NCBI GenBank assembly: GCA_964391035.1
Contig: CAYMLW010000001.1
Coordinates: 1-54,898 of the forward strand
DNA: 54,898 nucleotides
From: an uncultured Gemmatimonadaceae bacterium
GTDB taxonomy: Bacteria > Gemmatimonadota > Gemmatimonadetes > Longimicrobiales > RSA9
Direction: 5' to 3'
The translations under genes and the position numbers were made by a program. The notes below the pieces were generated by a model. The model worked only from the letters and a program-made list of their open reading frames with translations, was not told the origin of the DNA and did not search any database. Below are positions 6,063 through 54,898 of this stretch, piece after piece (position 1 is the first letter of the stretch; each line of letters begins with the position of its first letter).

Positions 6063-7241
6063 GTGAGTTCACCCGTGTCGTCGCCCCGACCCCCGGTGGC
6101 CGAGCGCCAGTGGCTCGACCACGCCGGCGTCCGCGCCCTGGCCGTGCTTCTGCTGCTGTACACCTTCCTGGTCGGGGTCAACGGACTGGGGAGCGGGTTC
6201 AGGCTGCTCAGCCAGGATTTCCTGGAGAACTTCTTCACGGCCACGGCGAACCCCTTCGTGGGACTCATGGTGGGGATCCTCGCGACGACGCTGGTCCAGA
6301 GCTCGTCGGTCACGACTTCCCTCATCGTGGGCCTGGTGGCGGCCCCGGAGAACCCGCTCCCGGTGGCGAACGCGATCCCGATGGTCATGGGCGCCAACAT
6401 CGGCACGACCGTGACCAACACGATCGCGTCCATGGCCCATATCGGCTGGAAGCAGGAGTTCCGCCGGGCGTTCGCCGTCGCCACCTGCCACGACTTCTTC
6501 AACTACCTGGCCGTCCTGATCCTGCTGCCGGTGGAGCTGCTGACGGGCTACCTCGGCCGCTCGGCGACGGCGCTGACCGGTCTCCTGGGCGGGCTGAGCG
6601 GCGCCGAGTACGAGAGTCCGATCAAGGGGGCGATCAAGGCCGGCGGGAGGCCCATCCAGGACCTGATCCATGTGGTGACGCCGTCGGAGGGCTGGGCGGC
6701 CACGCTGTACATCTTCGTCAGCGGGGCCATCATCTTCCTGAGCCTCATGGGCATCGTGTCGGTGATGCGCTCGGCCATGAAGAGCCGGGTCGAACGGCTG
6801 GTGACCCGGGCCTTCGGTAACCGGGCCGTGATCGCCATGCTCGTGGGCATCGTGGCGACGGTGATGGTCCAGTCCAGCTCCATCACGACATCCCTGCTCG
6901 TGCCCCTCGCCGGCGCAGGCGTCCTCACGCTGCCCCAGGCCTTCCCGATCACTCTCGGAGCCAACGTGGGCACGACGGTCACGGCCTTGCTCGCGGCGCT
7001 GGCCGCCACCGGCGAGCATGCCGCGGCCGGTCTGACCATCGCCCTCGTTCACCTGCTCTTCAACGTGTCCGCGATCCTGTTGATCTACCCCGCGGAGCGC
7101 ATTCGCAACCTGCCACTCGCGGCCGCCCGTACGCTGGCCGATCTGGCCACCCGGTCGAAGACGCTGGCCATCCTGTACGTGCTCGCGCTCTTCTACGGGG
7201 TCCCCGCTCTCTTCGCTATCTTCGGCCACGCCTTCGGATAG
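6063..7241 (+). CDS. Na+/phosphate cotransporter family protein (NptA/YjbB-like membrane domain)
   Basis: Track ORF 6063..7241 (GTG start). Duplicated motif QSSSVTTSLIVGL...GANIGTTVTN / QSSSITTSLLVPL...GANVGTTVTA is typical of the Na/Pi cotransporter repeat. Confidence 0.85.
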   Translation: MSSPVSSPRPPVAERQWLDHAGVRALAVLLLLYTFLVGVNGLGSGFRLLSQDFLENFFTATANPFVGLMVGILATTLVQSSSVTTSLIVGLVAAPENPLPVANAIPMVMGANIGTTVTNTIASMAHIGWKQEFRRAFAVATCHDFFNYLAVLILLPVELLTGYLGRSATALTGLLGGLSGAEYESPIKGAIKAGGRPIQDLIHVVTPSEGWAATLYIFVSGAIIFLSLMGIVSVMRSAMKSRVERLVTRAFGNRAVIAMLVGIVATVMVQSSSITTSLLVPLAGAGVLTLPQAFPITLGANVGTTVTALLAALAATGEHAAAGLTIALVHLLFNVSAILLIYPAERIRNLPLAAARTLADLATRSKTLAILYVLALFYGVPALFAIFGHAFG

Positions 7242-7251
7242 GAGGAACCTG

Positions 7252-7956
7252 ATGTTGCGTGAACTGCTGGACCTATTCCGATCCAATGACGCCATCTCGG
7301 AGATGGGCGACGACTTCCAGGAGATGATGCAGCTCGCGATCGAGCTCACGCTGGAGGCGGGGGCCCACTTCTTCGACACGCCGCCCACGCCCGAGGACCG
7401 GACGTCGGTATCGAAGCGTGACATCCGGTTGAACAAGCTGGAGCGAAGCATCCGGAAACAGGTGATCACGCATCTGACCCTGGGTGAGGACACTGGCCGC
7501 GAGGCACCCTACTGCCTGCTCCTCATGAGTCTCGTGAAGGACGTCGAGCGCATCGGCGACTACTGCAAGAATCTGGTCGAGATCTACGATGAGGGCGGCG
7601 GCCCGATCCCCGACGACGAGAACGGCGCGGAGCTCCGTGAGATCCGGGCCGAGGTCGAGGCTTCCCTCACGGCCATCGACAACGTCTTCAGCACGTCGGA
7701 CACCGAGGCGGCCCTCGGCCTCATGCGGCGGGGACGGGAGGTGAACCGCAGGTGTGACATGCTGGTCTCCCGGGTCGCACGAAGCCAGTACGACGCTTCG
7801 AGGACGACCACCATGGTCCTGGGGGCCCGCTACTACAAGCGGATCCAGTCCCACCTGCTCAATATCCTCTCCGGCGTGATCATGCCGCTCCACAAGCTGG
7901 ACTACTACGACGAGCGGCTCCTCCCGGGCGGGGAGTACGCGGACGAGGAGGCGTAG
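7252..7956 (+). CDS. PhoU-domain protein (split-off regulatory half of YjbB-type Na/Pi transporters)
   Basis: Track ORF 7252..7956. GGAGGA RBS, 10 nt after the transporter stop. PhoU-like motifs IRLNKLERSIRKQVITHL and DVERIGDYCKNLVEI. Confidence 0.75.
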   Translation: MLRELLDLFRSNDAISEMGDDFQEMMQLAIELTLEAGAHFFDTPPTPEDRTSVSKRDIRLNKLERSIRKQVITHLTLGEDTGREAPYCLLLMSLVKDVERIGDYCKNLVEIYDEGGGPIPDDENGAELREIRAEVEASLTAIDNVFSTSDTEAALGLMRRGREVNRRCDMLVSRVARSQYDASRTTTMVLGARYYKRIQSHLLNILSGVIMPLHKLDYYDERLLPGGEYADEEA

Positions 7957-22054: not shown

Positions 22055-22133
22055 CCGCCCGCCCCTTGTGCGGGTCCGGCTACCCGGGCCACACTGACCA
22101 TCGAGCCCCTGCCCCCCTTCGACAGGAGGAGGC

Positions 22134-22490
22134 ATGGCCAGGCGGATCGGCATCATCTACTGCCAGAGCATTCAGGACACGACCTGCGTCGGGTGCGCCA
22201 AGTGCTACAAGGCGGTCAACGAGAAGACGTACACGTTCGCCGGGGACGACGATGTCCGGGTCGTCTTCAAGACTTCCTGTGGCGGCTGTCCCGGTCTCGT
22301 GCTCCCGAAGCTGGACCTCCAGGCGGTCGTTCTCGATGACCTGGATCAGAGCGTGGACGCGATCTATTTCGGCACCTGCGTCAAGAAGGCCAGGGCACTC
22401 ATGTCCTGCCCGATGAACCTCGACGCCATGAGGGCCAAGATAGAAGAGAAATGGCAGGTCCCGGTGGCCGTGGGCACCCACGACTACTGA
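22134..22490 (+). CDS. CGGC-domain protein (Cys-rich, 118 aa)
   Basis: Track ORF 22134..22490. AGGAGGAGG RBS. IIYCQSIQDTTCVGCAKCY...KTSCGGCPG...YFGTCV... matches the CGGC domain. Confidence 0.8.
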   Translation: MARRIGIIYCQSIQDTTCVGCAKCYKAVNEKTYTFAGDDDVRVVFKTSCGGCPGLVLPKLDLQAVVLDDLDQSVDAIYFGTCVKKARALMSCPMNLDAMRAKIEEKWQVPVAVGTHDY

Positions 22491-23547: not shown

Positions 23548-23710
23548 GGCTGAGGACGCCCGCCCCCTTTCACGGGTGTCCTGCTCCTCCGCCTCGCCGC
23601 CCCGGGAGTCAGGGGGCTCCCCCCGAGCGGGTACTGGCCCGCTCTGCAACACGGCATGGGCCGTATTCCGCCCGGACACGGAGATCCGCCGCTGAAGGAG
23701 GGAGACGACC

Positions 23711-24946
23711 TTGGAAAATCGAAGAATCAGCTTTCCCGGCACGGACGGCTCAACGCTGAGCGCACGGCTCAGTCTACCGGCCGACGGACACGTGCGGGCC
23801 TGCGCCCTCTTCGCACACTGCTTCACCTGCTCGAAGGACCTGAAGCCGGTGGTGAACATCAGCCGGGCCCTGACACAACGAGGGATCGCCGTGATGCGGT
23901 TCGACTTCACCGGACTCGGAGAGAGCGAGGGCGACTTCGCGGACACCACCTTCTCCTCCAATATCGGGGACCTGGTGGCGGCCACGGAGTACATGCAGAA
24001 CCAGTACGAGACCCCGGCCCTCGTCATCGGCCACTCTCTCGGCGGCGCCGCCGCGATCCAGGCGGCCGCGCGGCTCCCCGGCATCCGGGCCGTCGCCACC
24101 ATCGGGGCACCCTTCGATCCGGCTCACGTGAAGAACCTCTTCGCAGACACGCTCGAGGACATCGAGGCCGAGGGCCACGCCGAGGTGGTCCTCGCCGGTC
24201 GGCGGTTCACCGTACGCCGCGAGTTCATCCAGGACCTCGAGCGTCACCGGGTCGAACAGGTGATCCGGTCCCTCGAGCGACCGCTCCTGATCATGCACTC
24301 CCCCGTCGATGAGACCGTGGCGATCGAGAACGCCGCCCGCATCTACGAGGCCGCCCGGCACCCCAAGAGCTTCATCTCACTCGACGACGCGGACCACCTC
24401 CTGCTCGATGAGCGCGACTCCCTCTACGCCGGCGCCGTGCTGGCGGCATGGGCCGGGCGCTACATTGATCCTCTGCCCCAGCCCGAGACGAAGGAGGAGC
24501 TGCGGGACGCCGGTGGCGTGACCGCGCGCACGGCGGCCGGTGAGTTGCGCACCGAGATCATCGCCCGGGGCCATCCCATCGTGGCCGACGAGCCGGTGGC
24601 CGTAGGCGGGAGCGACCGCGGGCCGACGCCATACGACCTCCTGGGCGCGGCCCTCGGCGCGTGCACCACCATGACCCTCCAGATGTACGCCGCGCGCAAG
24701 AAGTGGCCATTGAAGGAGGCGGCGGTCCAGGTCAGACATTCGAAGGTGCACGCCGAGGACGAGGAGCACTGCCAGGACGACCACGCCCGCATCGACCGGC
24801 TCGAACGAGACGTGACGCTCGTTGGCCCGCTGGACGAGGCGCAGCGTGACCGTCTCCTCGATATCGCCGAGCGGTGTCCCGTCCACCGAACCCTCACCGC
24901 CGGGCTCCGTATAGAGACGAGGGAGACCGGCGACGCCGCCCTCTGA
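23711..24946 (+). CDS. Alpha/beta hydrolase fused to a C-terminal OsmC domain
   Basis: Track ORF 23711..24946 (TTG start after AGGAGGGAG). Nucleophile elbow GHSLGG. The C-terminal ~140 aa ([25 protein letters not shown]...ERCPVHRTL) are OsmC-like. Confidence 0.85.
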
Positions 24947-51003: not shown

Positions 51004-51708
51004 ATGAGCCGTGAGGCCATGTGGGACAGAGTCCGGATGGCGTGGTCGATGCTCTCCGGGCAAACGGATCGGGACGTTCGACCCGGTCGGCCACGGGAAT
51101 CGCGGCCGCAGCAGGAACCCGGTGCCGATACATCCGCCATTACGGCCGAGGGGTTCGCCGAGGAGGCGCTGCCTTGGCTCGACGCCGTCTACCGCTTCGC
51201 CATGCGCCTGACCCGCGGGGACGAGGACGCCGCCGAGGACCTGGTGCAGGAGACGTTTCTCCGGGCCCACCGCTTCTGGCACACCTATGAGCGCGGCACG
51301 AACGCCAAGTCGTGGCTCTTCACCATCTGCCGGAACACGTTCCTCCACAGGAAGGCGCTGGTGCGCAACCAGCGGGAGACGCCGGCGTCGGAGCTGGCGG
51401 ACGCGCGGGTCGAAGCGCTGGGCGCCGGGTCGGCGTTCGCGGCGCAGTCGTCGGACCCGGAGGAGGAGTTCTTCGCGAAGCTGATCGACGATCAGGTGGT
51501 GGAGGCGATCGACGCGCTGCCGGAGGAATTCCACGAGGTGCTGGTGCTCAGCGACCTCGGCGACCTGAAGTACGCCGAGATCGCGCAGGTACTGGATGTA
51601 CCGGTCGGGACGGTGAAGAGCCGCCTCTTCCGGGCGAGAAAGCTGCTGCAGGGCCGGCTGCGCGAGTTCGCGGTCGAGTCCGGCTATGTACCGGAGATCA
51701 CGCGATAA
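51004..51708 (+). CDS. ECF (group 4) RNA polymerase sigma factor, copy B
   Basis: Track ORF 51004..51708. Collinear with copy A (DLVQETFLRAHRFWHTYERGTNAKSWLFTICRN...LPEEFHEVLVLSDLGDLKYAEIAQVLDVPVGTVKSRLFRAR). Confidence 0.9.
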   Translation: MSREAMWDRVRMAWSMLSGQTDRDVRPGRPRESRPQQEPGADTSAITAEGFAEEALPWLDAVYRFAMRLTRGDEDAAEDLVQETFLRAHRFWHTYERGTNAKSWLFTICRNTFLHRKALVRNQRETPASELADARVEALGAGSAFAAQSSDPEEEFFAKLIDDQVVEAIDALPEEFHEVLVLSDLGDLKYAEIAQVLDVPVGTVKSRLFRARKLLQGRLREFAVESGYVPEITR

Positions 51709-51974
51709 TGGAGTCCATGGGCATGATCCGCTGCGAGGAGGCGCTCGCCCGCCTCTGGGAGTTCCTGGACGGCGAGCTTCAGCCCGGGGAAGAGGAAGCT
51801 GTGAAGAAGCACCTCGACATCTGCAACCGCTGCTACCCGCAGTACGACTTCCAGCGGGCGTACTTCGAGTTCACGCGCCGGATCCAGGACCGGGAGCACG
51901 CCCCCTCGTCGCTCCGGCGTCGCCTGTTCGAGAGGATCCTGGAGCAGGAGGCGAACAACGGGAAGGCGTCATGA
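51708..51974 (+). CDS. RsrA-like zinc-binding (ZAS) anti-sigma factor, 88 aa, copy B
   Basis: TAATG overlap with the sigma stop. Cys9 ... HLDICNRC. Near-identical to copy A over most of its length. Confidence 0.85.
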   Translation: MESMGMIRCEEALARLWEFLDGELQPGEEEAVKKHLDICNRCYPQYDFQRAYFEFTRRIQDREHAPSSLRRRLFERILEQEANNGKAS

Positions 51975-53059
51975 CACGCACCGTGCTGCTGGCCATCTCG
52001 CTCCTGCTGGCGTCGGGGCACCTTGCCGCCCAGGAGGAGTGGAGGACCGACTTCTCCAAACACACGGTCCCGCTGGATGAGATCGTTCCCGGCGGGCCCC
52101 CGAAGGACGGGATCCCGGCCATCGACGATCCCCGGTTCGTTTCGGTTCGCGCGGCCGACCGGTGGCTCGAGGACCGGGAGCCGGTGATGGTGGTGGAGCA
52201 CGGTGGCGACGCGCGAGCGTACCCGTACCAGATCCTCATCTGGCATGAGATCGTGAACGATGTAGTGGGCGGCCGACCCCTCGTCGTCACGTTCTGCCCG
52301 CTCTGCAACATCGCCCTCGTCTTCGACCGCGTCCACAGGGGGCGAACCCTCGATTTCGGCACGACCGGCCGGCTCCGCCACTCGGACCTGGTCATGTACG
52401 ACCGGCAGACCGAGAGCTGGTGGCAGCAGGCGACGGGCGAGGCCATCGTCGGTGACTTCGCCGGCGATACCCTGTCGTTCCTCCCCGCGCAGACGCTCCG
52501 CTGGGCCGACTTCAGGAAGACACATCCGGAGGGCCAGGTCCTGTCCCGGGAGACCGGGCACGACCGCCCCTACGGCCGGAACCCGTACGTCGGATACGAC
52601 CAGGGCGACGGCCCGCTCCGCGGCTTCCTCTCCCGTGAGGTGGATCAGCGCCTCCCGGCCATGGAGCGAGTGGCGGCGGTTCGGCTGGATGGCGCTTCCG
52701 TGGCGTACCCGTTCAGCGCGCTGAGCGAGCGGCGCGTGATCAACGATGAGATCGGGGACGAGGCGTTGGTCGTCTTCTGGGCACCCGGCACGGCCAGCGC
52801 ACTGGACGAGATCACGGTGGCCGGTGGACGCGACGTCGGCACGAGCGGCGTCTTCCGTCGCTCCGTCGAGGGCCGGGTCCTCACCTTCACCGCTGACGAG
52901 GAGGGCTACCGGGACCGGGAGACCGGGAGCGCCTGGGACCTCACCGGACGCGCCGTCTCCGGTCCGCTCCGGGGCACGCGACTCGAGGCCATCCCCCACG
53001 GCGACTACTTCTGGTTCGCCTGGGCGGCCTTCCGGCCGGACACCGAGATCCGCCGCTGA
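51971..53059 (+). CDS. DUF3179-domain periplasmic protein
   Basis: ATGA overlap with the anti-sigma stop, within track ORF 51686..53059. Signal peptide, then ...IVPGGPPKDGIPAIDDPRF...ARAYPYQILIWHEIVND...VTFCPLCN...WWQQATGEAI... typical of DUF3179. Confidence 0.85.
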   Translation: MTRTVLLAISLLLASGHLAAQEEWRTDFSKHTVPLDEIVPGGPPKDGIPAIDDPRFVSVRAADRWLEDREPVMVVEHGGDARAYPYQILIWHEIVNDVVGGRPLVVTFCPLCNIALVFDRVHRGRTLDFGTTGRLRHSDLVMYDRQTESWWQQATGEAIVGDFAGDTLSFLPAQTLRWADFRKTHPEGQVLSRETGHDRPYGRNPYVGYDQGDGPLRGFLSREVDQRLPAMERVAAVRLDGASVAYPFSALSERRVINDEIGDEALVVFWAPGTASALDEITVAGGRDVGTSGVFRRSVEGRVLTFTADEEGYRDRETGSAWDLTGRAVSGPLRGTRLEAIPHGDYFWFAWAAFRPDTEIRR

Positions 53060-53311
53060 GGCACCATTCACGACGGAGCTGCACGAATCGACCGGGAAGC
53101 GATCGTGATCGCCGAGGTGACCGAGCGCCTGGCCCGGGCCATGGGCGGCGACCCCGTCGTCGAGAATCGCCCCGACGGCGGCGCCCGCTCCACTGTGCGC
53201 CTGCCGCTGGAACAGGATGGCCTCGAGCATGCGGGGTCGCGCGAGACTGCGACTGGCGGTACTCTCACCACTGTTCCTTCCAACGAAGCCCGATCGAGCA
53301 TCGATGTCTGA
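53060..53311 (+). pseudogene. C-terminal remnant of a histidine kinase HATPase_c domain
   Basis: The frame opens at the first codon after the DUF3179 stop and reads ...REAIVIAEVTERLARAMGGDPVVENRPDGGARSTVRLPLEQ, the last ~40 residues of a GHKL kinase domain. There are no H-box or N/G1 boxes and no plausible start. Confidence 0.5.
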
Positions 53312-53888
53312 GCACACGCGCGCCGACGAACCCGGGGCCGCGCCCCCCGCCTGGATCGACACCGTCGCTCCGGAGGACGCCGATGGCACCCTCGCCGAAG
53401 TCTACCGGCGGATCGGCGGCCGGTCCGGCCTTGTGTCCCATATCCTCCGCTGCCAGTCGCTCCATCCCGAGGGTCTGCGTGACCACTACGCCCTCTACCG
53501 GACGGTCATGTTCGACCGCGGCGCCCTTTCACGGGCCGAGCGCGAGTCCATCGCCGTGGTGGTTTCGGCGGTAAACCGGTGCCGCTACTGAATCGAACAG
53601 CACGGGGCGGCGCTCCGTCAGGTCACGCGGGACGAAGATCTCGTGCGGTCCCTCTCCGAGGACTGGCGTGCGGCCGACCTCGATGAGCGACTCCGCGCCA
53701 TCCTCACCTTTGCGGAGAAGCTCACCCTTCGCCCGCAGGAGGTCCGGCGAGACGATCACCGGCCTCTGCACGAGGCCGGGCTGGACGACCGGGGGATCCT
53801 GGAGGTCGTCGAGGTGACCGCCTACTTCGCCTTCGTGAACCGTCTCGCGGACGGGCTCGGTGTCTCCCTCGAAGGTGGAGGCCGGTAG
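53304..53888 (+). CDS. AhpD-core / carboxymuconolactone-decarboxylase-family 'peroxidase-related' protein with an in-frame TGA at 53589-53591 (candidate Sec codon, or a nonsense pseudogene)
   Basis: Track ORFs 53217..53591 and 53643..53888 share one frame and are interrupted only by the TGA. The motif reads VNRCRY[TGA]IEQH, against the family signature CxxCxxxH. The downstream part (AEKLTLRP...AYFAFVNRLADGLGV) is intact. Confidence 0.75.
53602..53618 (+). other. Hairpin 10 nt downstream of the in-frame TGA (SECIS-like position)
   Basis: ACGGGGC-GGC-GCTCCGT: 7 bp including one G-T pair, with a G-containing triloop. The apical loop lies about 20 nt from the U of the UGA. Confidence 0.3.
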
Positions 53889-53963: not shown

Positions 53964-54320
53964 ATGGCGAAGATCTCGGTCGTGGTGCTGGCAGGCACCG
54001 AATCGCATTCGGATCTCGGGCGGGTGCTGAACGCCCTCGAGCTGGTGAAGGAGGCGGCCCAGGAGGGGGACCGGACGGAGCTCGTGTTCGACGGCGCGGG
54101 CGTGCAATGGATCCCCGAGCTCAGCGACCCGGAGCACAAGCTGCACGGCATCTATGAGGACGTGCGCGGGTTCGTCGCCGGGGCATGCCAGTTCTGCGCG
54201 AACGCGTTCGAGGTGAAGGAGCAGGTGCAGGACGCGGACGTGGCGCTGCTGGGCGAGTTCGAGGGACACCCGAGCCTGCGGCAGCGCGTGGCAGACGGCT
54301 TCGAGATCGTCACGTTCTGA
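53964..54320 (+). CDS. DsrE/DsrF-like family protein (118 aa)
   Basis: Track ORF 53907..54320 trimmed to ATG 53964, preceded by AGGAGGAG. MAKISVVVLAGTESHSDLGRVLNALELV...AGACQFCANAF... fits the DsrE-like fold. Confidence 0.75.
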   Translation: MAKISVVVLAGTESHSDLGRVLNALELVKEAAQEGDRTELVFDGAGVQWIPELSDPEHKLHGIYEDVRGFVAGACQFCANAFEVKEQVQDADVALLGEFEGHPSLRQRVADGFEIVTF

Positions 54321-54342: not shown

Positions 54343-54380
54343 GAGCCGGCGCGCCCCTGGTGCGTCGGCTCTTCTGCTGC
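54343..54380 (+). terminator. Possible intrinsic terminator after the DsrE-like gene
   Basis: GAGCCGGCGC...GTGCGTCGGCTC forms a 10-11 bp stem (54343-54371), followed by TTCTGCTGC. The T-tract is weak. Confidence 0.4.
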
Positions 54381-54463
54381 TGGCCGCCATGGCGGCGGAA
54401 CCCTCCCGCAGGCGATCCGGTTCGAGCCACGAGACGAGTACCCCATCGAGCAACGGAGGCTCT

Positions 54464-54898
54464 CATGACGCCGGCCATCAAAGCCGCGGGCAGCATCCTG
54501 ACGTTCACGACGATCACCCTTCTGGCTGCGTGCGCGGACGCGGGCGACGCGGCGGACACCGACCAGCAGGCCCGGCCGCCAGCGGAGGCCACGACCACCG
54601 CGGAGGCCGAGCCGCGGGCCGCCGCCCCCGACACCACGGCCGGGGCGGTTTGGGCGTTCCTCGAAAGTCAAGCGTACCGGGAGAACTGGCGTCTCTGGCC
54701 CGGCAAGGACCGGCTGTATCCGGGTACGGAGCCCCACGGCATGCTCCTCACCACCTACGCGAACAGCACCGCCTACCAGGCGCTGCAGGACGACCAGGTG
54801 ACGGACCTGCCGGCGGGTTCGATCATCGTGAAGGAGAACTGGATGCCGGACTCGACCTTTGCGGCTGCGACCGTGATGTACAAGGTCGACGGCTACAA
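54464..54898 (+). CDS. Cytochrome P460-family lipoprotein (5' partial; runs off the window)
   Basis: Not in the track because it has no stop. ATG 54464 follows GGAGG. Lipobox LLAA|C. ...WRLWPGKDRLYPGTEPHGMLLTTYANSTAYQAL...GSIIVKENW... is typical of the P460 domain. The C-terminal CxxCH would lie beyond the window. Confidence 0.7.

Follow-up and report, generated by a model that had tools for sequence, protein, structure and literature searches.

The DNA analysed here, referred to as the window, is a stretch of 54,898 nucleotides from an uncultured bacterium of the Gemmatimonadaceae (contig CAYMLW010000001.1 of assembly GCA_964391035.1). Close to its 3' end lies a gene for an AhpD-like protein whose reading frame is interrupted by a single TGA codon, and which an earlier note, made from the sequence alone, had put forward as a candidate selenoprotein gene (hereafter the original prediction). 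Gene calling splits this gene into two open reading frames (ORFs), 53217..53591 and 53643..53888. Both lie in one frame, as originally claimed, and translation confirmed that the TGA at 53589-53591 is the only stop between them. The translation of 53304-53888 reads S-A-V-N-R-C-R-Y-[TGA]-I-E-Q-H-G-A-A-L-R around this codon, number 96, and contains no other internal stop. The ATG at 53304 is the inferred start, since the homologues begin 13-37 residues ahead of a conserved AWI(E/D)TV motif; a further in-frame ATG lies upstream at 53217. The stop sits on the second Cys of a C-x-x-C-x-x-x-H motif with the His at +4 kept, and it aligns with the Cys of the homologues, which bears out the placement given in the original prediction. 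A small hairpin follows the TGA, and genes for a sigma factor, an anti-sigma factor and a DUF3179 protein precede the AhpD-like gene (Table 1). We regard 53304-53888 as probably a functional AhpD-like selenoprotein gene in which TGA is read as selenocysteine (Sec), and assign a probability of about 0.88 to this reading.

Table 1. Features of the AhpD-like locus, in positions of the window. CDS, coding sequence; SECIS, selenocysteine insertion sequence; ECF, extracytoplasmic function; Mtb, Mycobacterium tuberculosis.
Feature	Coordinates	Strand	Remarks
AhpD-like selenoprotein CDS (predicted)	53304..53888	+	194 residues, Sec at 96, TAG stop 53886-53888
In-frame UGA, codon 96, predicted to be read as selenocysteine	53589..53591	+	Replaces second Cys of CxxC: C93-R-Y-U96
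Bacterial SECIS core hairpin (predicted)	53602..53618	+	Stem 53602-53608/53612-53618, 7 bp; loop GGC 53609-53611
Glu81 codon (GAG)	53544..53546	+	12 residues ahead of Cys93; invariant in alignment A1; corresponds to Glu118 of the Mtb AhpD proton relay
Cys93 codon (TGC)	53580..53582	+	First Cys of CxxU, predicted resolving residue; column invariant in alignment A1
His100 codon (CAC)	53601..53603	+	4 residues past Sec96; invariant in alignment A1; corresponds to His137 of Mtb AhpD
Active site of the window protein (predicted)			Glu81 / Cys93 / Tyr95 / codon 96 (TGA) / His100
ECF-type sigma-70 factor gene	51004..51708	+	Sigma70_r2, Sigma70_r4_2; TIGR02937 sigma70-ECF 91.8 bits vs 42.9; start codon uncertain
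Zinc-finger anti-sigma factor (zf-HC2) gene	51708..51974	+	PF13490 E = 3.9e-11; H-x3-C-x2-C motif HLDICNRC
DUF3179 protein gene	51971..53059	+	PF11376 E = 7.6e-111; N-terminal hydrophobic leader, CPLC motif

Profile scans were carried out with the read-through product, Cys being put in at codon 96. The NCBI model TIGR01926 ("peroxidase-related enzyme") matched with 165.5 bits where 81.8 are required, and profile positions 1-173 of 178 were covered by residues 16-187. This nearly end-to-end match agrees with the earlier statement that the read-through product spans the whole of that family. The Pfam domain CMD (PF02627) was matched as well. When the family profile was compared with solved structures, the best match was 6k40 (AhpD, E = 5e-44), followed by 3c1l (Mlr4105) and the peroxidase-related entries 2oyo, 2pfx and 2prr (down to 3e-31). 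These proteins share with the window protein their full length and the segment N-x-C-x-Y-C-x-x-x-H-G-A-A-L-R; however, all of them carry Cys rather than Sec, and they are mostly structural-genomics entries without a defined substrate. The canonical AhpD model TIGR00777 scored 19.1 bits against a cutoff of 191.95; the window protein would act as AhpD does without being its orthologue. Two AhpD-fold families that NCBI models as selenoproteins with a CxxU-type motif were also compared. The window protein scores far below the cutoff of both, NF041238 (AhpD_rel_CFYUT (seleno)protein, 64.6 bits against 175) and NF053654 (YciW-related (seleno)protein, 25 bits against 310), and is a member of neither.

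In alignment A1 the columns of E81, C93, Y95, C96 and H100 are all invariant. The catalytic site of M. tuberculosis AhpD consists of Glu118, Cys130, His132, Cys133 and His137, and that of Pseudomonas aeruginosa PA0269 of Glu36, Cys48, Tyr50, Cys51 and His55 (PMC3141380). The spacing of Glu, Cys, Tyr, U and His in the window is identical to that of the proton relay in both proteins. The window protein has in common with M. tuberculosis AhpD the C-x-x-C-x-x-x-H motif, a Glu 12 residues before the first Cys and the CMD/AhpD core domain. It differs in reading C-R-Y-U where the mycobacterial protein reads C-S-H-C, with Sec in place of Cys133, and in that no ahpC gene adjoins it.

Related loci were collected by a scan of one genome per species, which yielded 80 loci; after duplicates had been dropped and metagenomic loci added, 84 non-redundant loci remained. 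The codon in the Sec column is TGA in 50 of these and TGC or TGT in the other 34. Forty-nine TGA loci were tabulated, L089, the closest relative of the window, being read separately, and the hairpin comparison described below took in 32 Cys forms. All 49 tabulated loci keep at least 94 open codons past the TGA and terminate at the same point as the Cys homologues, and L089 also reads through to a complete C-terminal half. The TGA loci span Gemmatimonadota, Chloroflexota, Acidobacteriota, Bacillota, Actinomycetota, Cloacimonadota, SAR324, Marinimicrobia and other groups. The original prediction had proposed an alignment of orthologues as a check, and had named downstream frameshifts or stops in relatives sharing the TGA as a sign of decay. 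The aligned column holds either Cys or a TGA with conserved downstream frame and, in most of these forms, the hairpin, and none of the 49 tabulated loci or L089 has decayed past the TGA.

A search of the protein collection returned full-length Cys homologues together with an unusually large number of half-length proteins. The N-terminal ones end in N-G-C-(R/H)-Y and the C-terminal ones start with M-x-H-H-G-A-A-L-R, and in the DNA of such pairs both halves abut in one frame across a TGA. At least 16 entries are half-genes of this kind (P0010, P0031, P0036, P0039, P0040, P0044, P0050, P0058, P0061, P0069, P0107, P0108, P0115 and P0118-P0120). Two further entries, P0114, which runs out of frame past C-H-Y, and P0117, which has an unrelated N-terminus, look like frame errors or mis-called starts. 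One related contig, L005, holds a second split gene in addition to its TGA-form AhpD-like gene: at 6812-7786 a gene for glycine/sarcosine/betaine reductase B (GRDB), adjoining a glutaredoxin-domain gene, is called as two abutting ORFs of 230 and 92 amino acids, and seems to be a further selenoprotein gene cut at the Sec codon.

TGA itself is an ordinary stop in this DNA, as had been stated from gene junctions. Pfam profiles end 2-12 residues from TGA stops in neighbouring genes (DUF3179 292/292, CGGC 106/106, OsmC 99/100, CorC_HlyC 79/81 and TrkA_C 71/71). These genes stop at TGA where a stop is expected, so the code has not undergone a global reassignment.

The TGA is followed after 10 nt by a 17-nt hairpin with a 7-bp stem and a G-containing triloop, as originally described. 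Its sequence is ACGGGGC / GGC / GCUCCGU, with one G-U among the seven pairs. It is encoded by the codons for H100-G-A-A-L-R105, and the last two bases of the His100 codon double as the first two of the stem. Published criteria for bacterial SECIS elements call for a loop of 3-9 nt on a stem of 4-16 bp, a G in the first two loop positions, a spacing of 16-37 nt and a minimum free energy (MFE) of -7.5 kcal/mol or lower (PMC13188914, Fig. 2). These were applied by a purpose-written script. The window hairpin lies within all four limits, having a loop of 3 nt (GGC) on a 7-bp stem, G in both positions, a distance of 17 nt from UGA to loop and an energy of -9.0 kcal/mol. The spacing agrees with the earlier remark that the hairpin is placed as expected for a bacterial SECIS. 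The window hairpin is also identical to the commonest variant among the TGA forms.

Comparison of the related loci revealed that this structure belongs to the TGA forms. In a fixed register (positions +14 to +20 with +30 to +24, counted from the U of UGA), at least six of the seven pairs are present in 36 of 49 TGA forms, in contrast to 2 of 32 Cys forms, and the published criteria pick out 29 of 50 TGA forms but none of the 32 Cys forms. Across the TGA-form alignment 85.7% of cells are paired, as against 31-49% when the partner is slid by one to three columns. Both sides have changed in four of the seven pairs (one case is G-C to C-G, with Ala for Gly and CUG for CUC), and the covariation score was reached by none of 500 shuffles. 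The Cys forms read HH[A/S]EAL[N/R] where the TGA forms read H-G-A-[A/G]-L-R, and the stem is absent from them. Four TGA forms from Chloroflexota (L013, L030, L031 and L034), which read H-H-A-R-N-L-R-Q-L-T-G-D, also lack the usual hairpin. They carry a different one about 10 nt further 3', at about +25 to +43 past the UGA (CUCCGUCAGUUGACUGGAG), which suggests that the SECIS has been replaced within one protein family in this subgroup. The E. coli fdhF and fdnG elements are, like the window hairpin, stem-loops inside the coding sequence that directly follow the UGA on its 3' side and have a G in the apical loop at SelB-binding distance. The window hairpin is, however, much shorter (17 nt), has no bulged U and no sequence similarity to them, and the binding of SelB to it is predicted.

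The inheritance of the TGA was followed in a neighbor-joining tree of 84 sequences. There the window groups with L089 as its sister, inside a clade of Gemmatimonadota-type sequences that is rich in TGA forms. L089 was assembled independently and shares about 80% amino-acid identity with the window protein. It has the same TGA, an intact C-terminal half and a hairpin with seven of seven pairs; the sole amino-acid change near the hairpin, Ala to Val, is located in the loop. The same TGA is found in L007, L009 and L001 and in the greater part of the Gemmatimonadota clade that surrounds the window. TGA forms are also present on a complete Longimicrobiales chromosome (OZ245028.1, L083) and on a contig of 512 kb (JBDHBD010000002.1, L012). 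The nearest Cys forms, L090 and L091, both have TGT, are nested in the TGA-rich clade and keep six of the seven hairpin pairs, which points to recent conversions from Sec to Cys. Over the whole tree, about five switches between Sec and Cys suffice to explain the distribution.

Selection on the two halves of the gene was compared by the method of Nei and Gojobori. With L089 as the reference, the ratio of nonsynonymous to synonymous substitution rates (dN/dS) came to 0.150 for the part past the TGA and 0.125 for the part before it, at a synonymous distance (dS) of about 0.8; amino-acid identity is 0.79 downstream and 0.82 upstream. Six more distant relatives gave similar dN/dS values. Because dN/dS downstream is similar to that upstream, the segment past the TGA has been kept as protein. 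None of the marks of a pseudogene was found: dN/dS is low, the frame shows neither a further stop nor a frameshift, and the TGA is shared by the closest relative.

Several observations nevertheless weigh against a gene decoded with Sec. ARAGORN found no tRNA gene in the 54.9-kb window and no tRNA-Sec in 48 TGA loci, and Pfam searches found no SelA, SelB or SelD domain among the approximately 40 ORFs of the window. When E. coli SelA, SelB and SelD were used as tblastn queries on the window plus about 1.3 Mb of related loci, a generic GTPase in an archaeal Cys-form locus was the sole match. Codon 99 (53598-53600) is Gln (CAG) in the window, as opposed to His in at least 90% of the relatives, which read U-x-x-H-H. 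The difference is one substitution at the wobble position, immediately 5' of the SECIS stem; the equivalent residue of L044 and L073 is Ala. That the Sec column holds TGA but never TAA or TAG is weak evidence and was set aside, since TGA is the sole stop one substitution away from TGC or TGT. The 62 nt past the UGA have an unremarkable folding energy for sequence of 70% G+C (MFE z = -0.64), and 8.4% of codon shuffles of the downstream 60 nt also come within the SECIS criteria. Rfam gave no match at the gathering threshold in the window and only chance-level matches (E > 3) for 53500-53720 at E <= 10. As far as our literature search found, incorporation of selenium in the AhpD-like family is a computational prediction. 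The role of attacking nucleophile at position 96, the counterpart of Cys133 in M. tuberculosis, is presumably carried over from that protein. In addition, the MFE structure of 53589-53650 differs from the hairpin at 53602-53618. Thermodynamics alone cannot decide whether the hairpin is a SECIS. Its significance stems from the fact that the same TGA and hairpin recur in dozens of divergent orthologues, while the hairpin is missing from the Cys forms.

The main remaining alternative, which we consider improbable, is a fossil selenoprotein gene: TGA and SECIS would have come down from a Sec-using ancestor, the Sec machinery would have been lost lately, and translation would end at codon 95. The lack of sel genes and tRNA-Sec in the window and the unusual Gln99 are in line with such a history, as are the nested TGT forms L090 and L091, in that the clade sometimes gives up Sec. 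However, lineages that abandon Sec here appear to switch the codon to TGT and not to keep TGA. The downstream frame of the window gene is intact over 98 codons and its hairpin is perfect, matching the commonest variant. The downstream dN/dS of 0.15 argues in the same direction, although a very recent loss is beyond the reach of such measures.

Two separate products, one of 95 residues from the N-terminal half and one translated from GTG 53643, are very unlikely, as is suppression of the UGA by a near-cognate tRNA inserting Trp or Cys. Such a split would interrupt the catalytic helix, and with it a single CMD/AhpD domain and the C-x-x-[C/U]-x-x-x-H site. Gene callers do yield two ORFs here and in relatives, and many relatives have an ATG directly after the TGA, but the next in-frame start in the window lies 17 codons downstream and would lose His100. 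The stop aligns only with Cys, and a conserved hairpin at the correct position is expected from Sec insertion but not from simple leaky termination.

As the segment past the TGA is maintained as protein, a recent nonsense mutation and a sequencing error, both of which the original prediction had left standing, are excluded in practice. A new pseudogene made by a TGC-to-TGA or TGT-to-TGA change would take only a single substitution, and hairpin-like structures are common in DNA of 70% G+C. Yet the same TGA occurs in the independently assembled L089, in L007, L009 and L001 and in most of the clade, no second lesion has appeared despite the synonymous distance from L089, and the hairpin is specific to TGA forms; we give this explanation hardly any weight. 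An error of sequencing or assembly at 53589-53591 has a negligible probability, for although the window is a single sequence without reads, the same codon recurs in 49 further non-redundant loci, which stem from many sequencing projects and independent assemblies, and the window carries the hairpin specific to Sec forms. A CxxU selenoprotein is thus favoured over the two alternatives named originally, with support from the inherited TGA, purifying selection downstream of it, and a covarying hairpin confined to the TGA forms.

If the gene encodes a selenoprotein, its product would be a single cytoplasmic thiol/selenol oxidoreductase of 194 residues belonging to the TIGR01926 family. By analogy with Sec insertion as established in bacteria, codon 96 (UGA) would be decoded as Sec: SelB carrying Sec-tRNA(Sec) would bind the hairpin at 53602-53618 while the ribosome stands at the UGA, and would deliver Sec in competition with release factor 2. 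The active site would comprise Glu81, Cys93, Tyr95, Sec96 and His100, the residues of the AhpD proton relay except that Sec stands where the second Cys does. On the model of M. tuberculosis AhpD, the selenolate of Sec96 would attack an oxidised partner, either a sulfenate or a disulfide of peroxiredoxin type, or might attack a hydroperoxide directly. Cys93 would then resolve the intermediate to an intramolecular selenenylsulfide, to be reduced by a cellular reductant.

AhpD-like selenoproteins are already known, as had been stated in the original prediction, and figure in selenoproteome surveys dating from 2005 to 2026. An AhpD-like CxxU family (COG2128) was described as new in the Sargasso Sea metagenome with 27 sequences (PMC1088965), and "AhpD-like 1", with 299 sequences, was among the most abundant selenoprotein families in the Global Ocean Sampling data (PMC2398784). 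"AhpD-like protein, TIGR01926, CxxU" is listed in a 2026 review of the prokaryotic selenoproteome (PMC13188914), and AhpD-like selenoproteins are a browsable family in BSepDB. At the level of sequence the window gene agrees with this family in every criterion, and the family is not new. It shares with the published members the TIGR01926 assignment, the position of Sec in CxxU, a small SECIS with a G in its loop downstream, and widespread Cys homologues. Nothing essential distinguishes it from them; the window copy comes from a genome of 70% G+C, whereas the published sequences are mostly marine metagenome reads. No specific description of Sec use in Gemmatimonadota or Gemmatimonadetes was found in the literature searched.

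The main consequence concerns annotation. Standard gene callers split AhpD-like Sec genes in two, systematically and across public databases. The resulting half-gene entries hide a functional redox enzyme and understate the use of Sec in phyla of soil and sediment, among them Gemmatimonadota, Chloroflexota and Acidobacteriota. The 50 TGA and 34 Cys forms, with a very small and well-defined SECIS, also constitute a natural experiment on the interconversion of Sec and Cys, and the same set is suited to the question of how an RNA signal within a coding sequence constrains the protein. Knowledge of selenoproteins in general is unchanged by the window gene.

Just upstream of the AhpD-like gene, the sigma factor, anti-sigma factor and DUF3179 genes form a predicted translationally coupled operon, with a TAATG junction (51706-51710) between the first two and an ATGA junction (51971-51974) between the second and third. 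The same sigma/zf-HC2 pair lies upstream of the AhpD-like gene in L090, and homologues of the sigma factor adjoin AhpD-like genes in L090, L009, L007, L011 and L012. DUF3179 adjoins AhpD-like genes of both the Sec and the Cys form in nine related loci, which belong to several phyla. A hydrolase-OsmC fusion gene and a P460-like gene also recur near the AhpD-like genes of relatives. Several genes of the window have their best matches in metagenome-assembled genomes of Gemmatimonadota. Neither a sigma-70-type promoter nor an intrinsic terminator was detected around the AhpD-like gene. From the conserved neighborhood it is plausible that this gene is part of a response to oxidative or thiol stress.

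A wider proposal, which we offer tentatively and hold to be possible rather than probable, joins these observations with those on the hairpin. Gemmatimonadota might be a Sec-using phylum in which the AhpD-like selenoprotein is the effector of a redox-sensing module of ECF sigma factor and zinc anti-sigma factor (H-x3-C-x2-C), with DUF3179 as a conserved partner. The SECIS of the family might be a minimal 17-nt hairpin within the codons for H-G-A-[A/G]-L-R, so that a requirement of the RNA would fix the motif by which Sec forms differ from Cys forms (HH[A/S]EAL[N/R]), the Chloroflexota subgroup using a different hairpin further 3' instead.

Further observations concern the immediate surroundings of the gene. 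When the window was searched for in-frame TGAs flanked by coding-like sequence, the region following the DUF3179 stop was the only one picked up, and it matched no family. There, 83 coding-like codons (53060-53311, G+C content at third codon positions 0.82) continue in frame past the TGA. By eye, the encoded peptide (…GGDPVVENRPDGGARSTVRLPL…) is similar to the C-terminus of a histidine-kinase ATPase domain, and no Pfam match was obtained at E <= 0.01; the stretch may be a gene remnant. On the other side of the AhpD-like gene, the ORF at 53964-54320 encodes 118 residues with a C-x-x-C motif (ACQFC). It had been taken for DsrE-like, an assignment that the profile searches did not bear out, as neither Pfam nor NCBIfam gave a match at E <= 0.01. 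A P460-like gene directly follows the AhpD-like gene in L090, L007 and L089, and 53964-54320 hence looks like an insertion separating these two genes. The next ORF, 54345-54896, is cut by the end of the window. It is 72-85% identical to the genes after the AhpD-like gene in L090, L007, L008 and L089; these counterparts are annotated as Cytochrome_P460, and the window ORF itself has only a weak Pfam match (E = 0.007).

The window also contains a second cluster of redox genes. It includes an alpha/beta-hydrolase-OsmC fusion gene (23696-24946), which is 30 kb away from the AhpD-like gene, whereas its orthologues in L009 and L091 (71% and 55% identity) come directly after that gene on its downstream side. 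Near the fusion gene and a gene for a flavin mononucleotide (FMN) reductase, the same cluster encodes a small CGGC-domain protein (22098-22490, PF08821) with a weak ferredoxin-like match.

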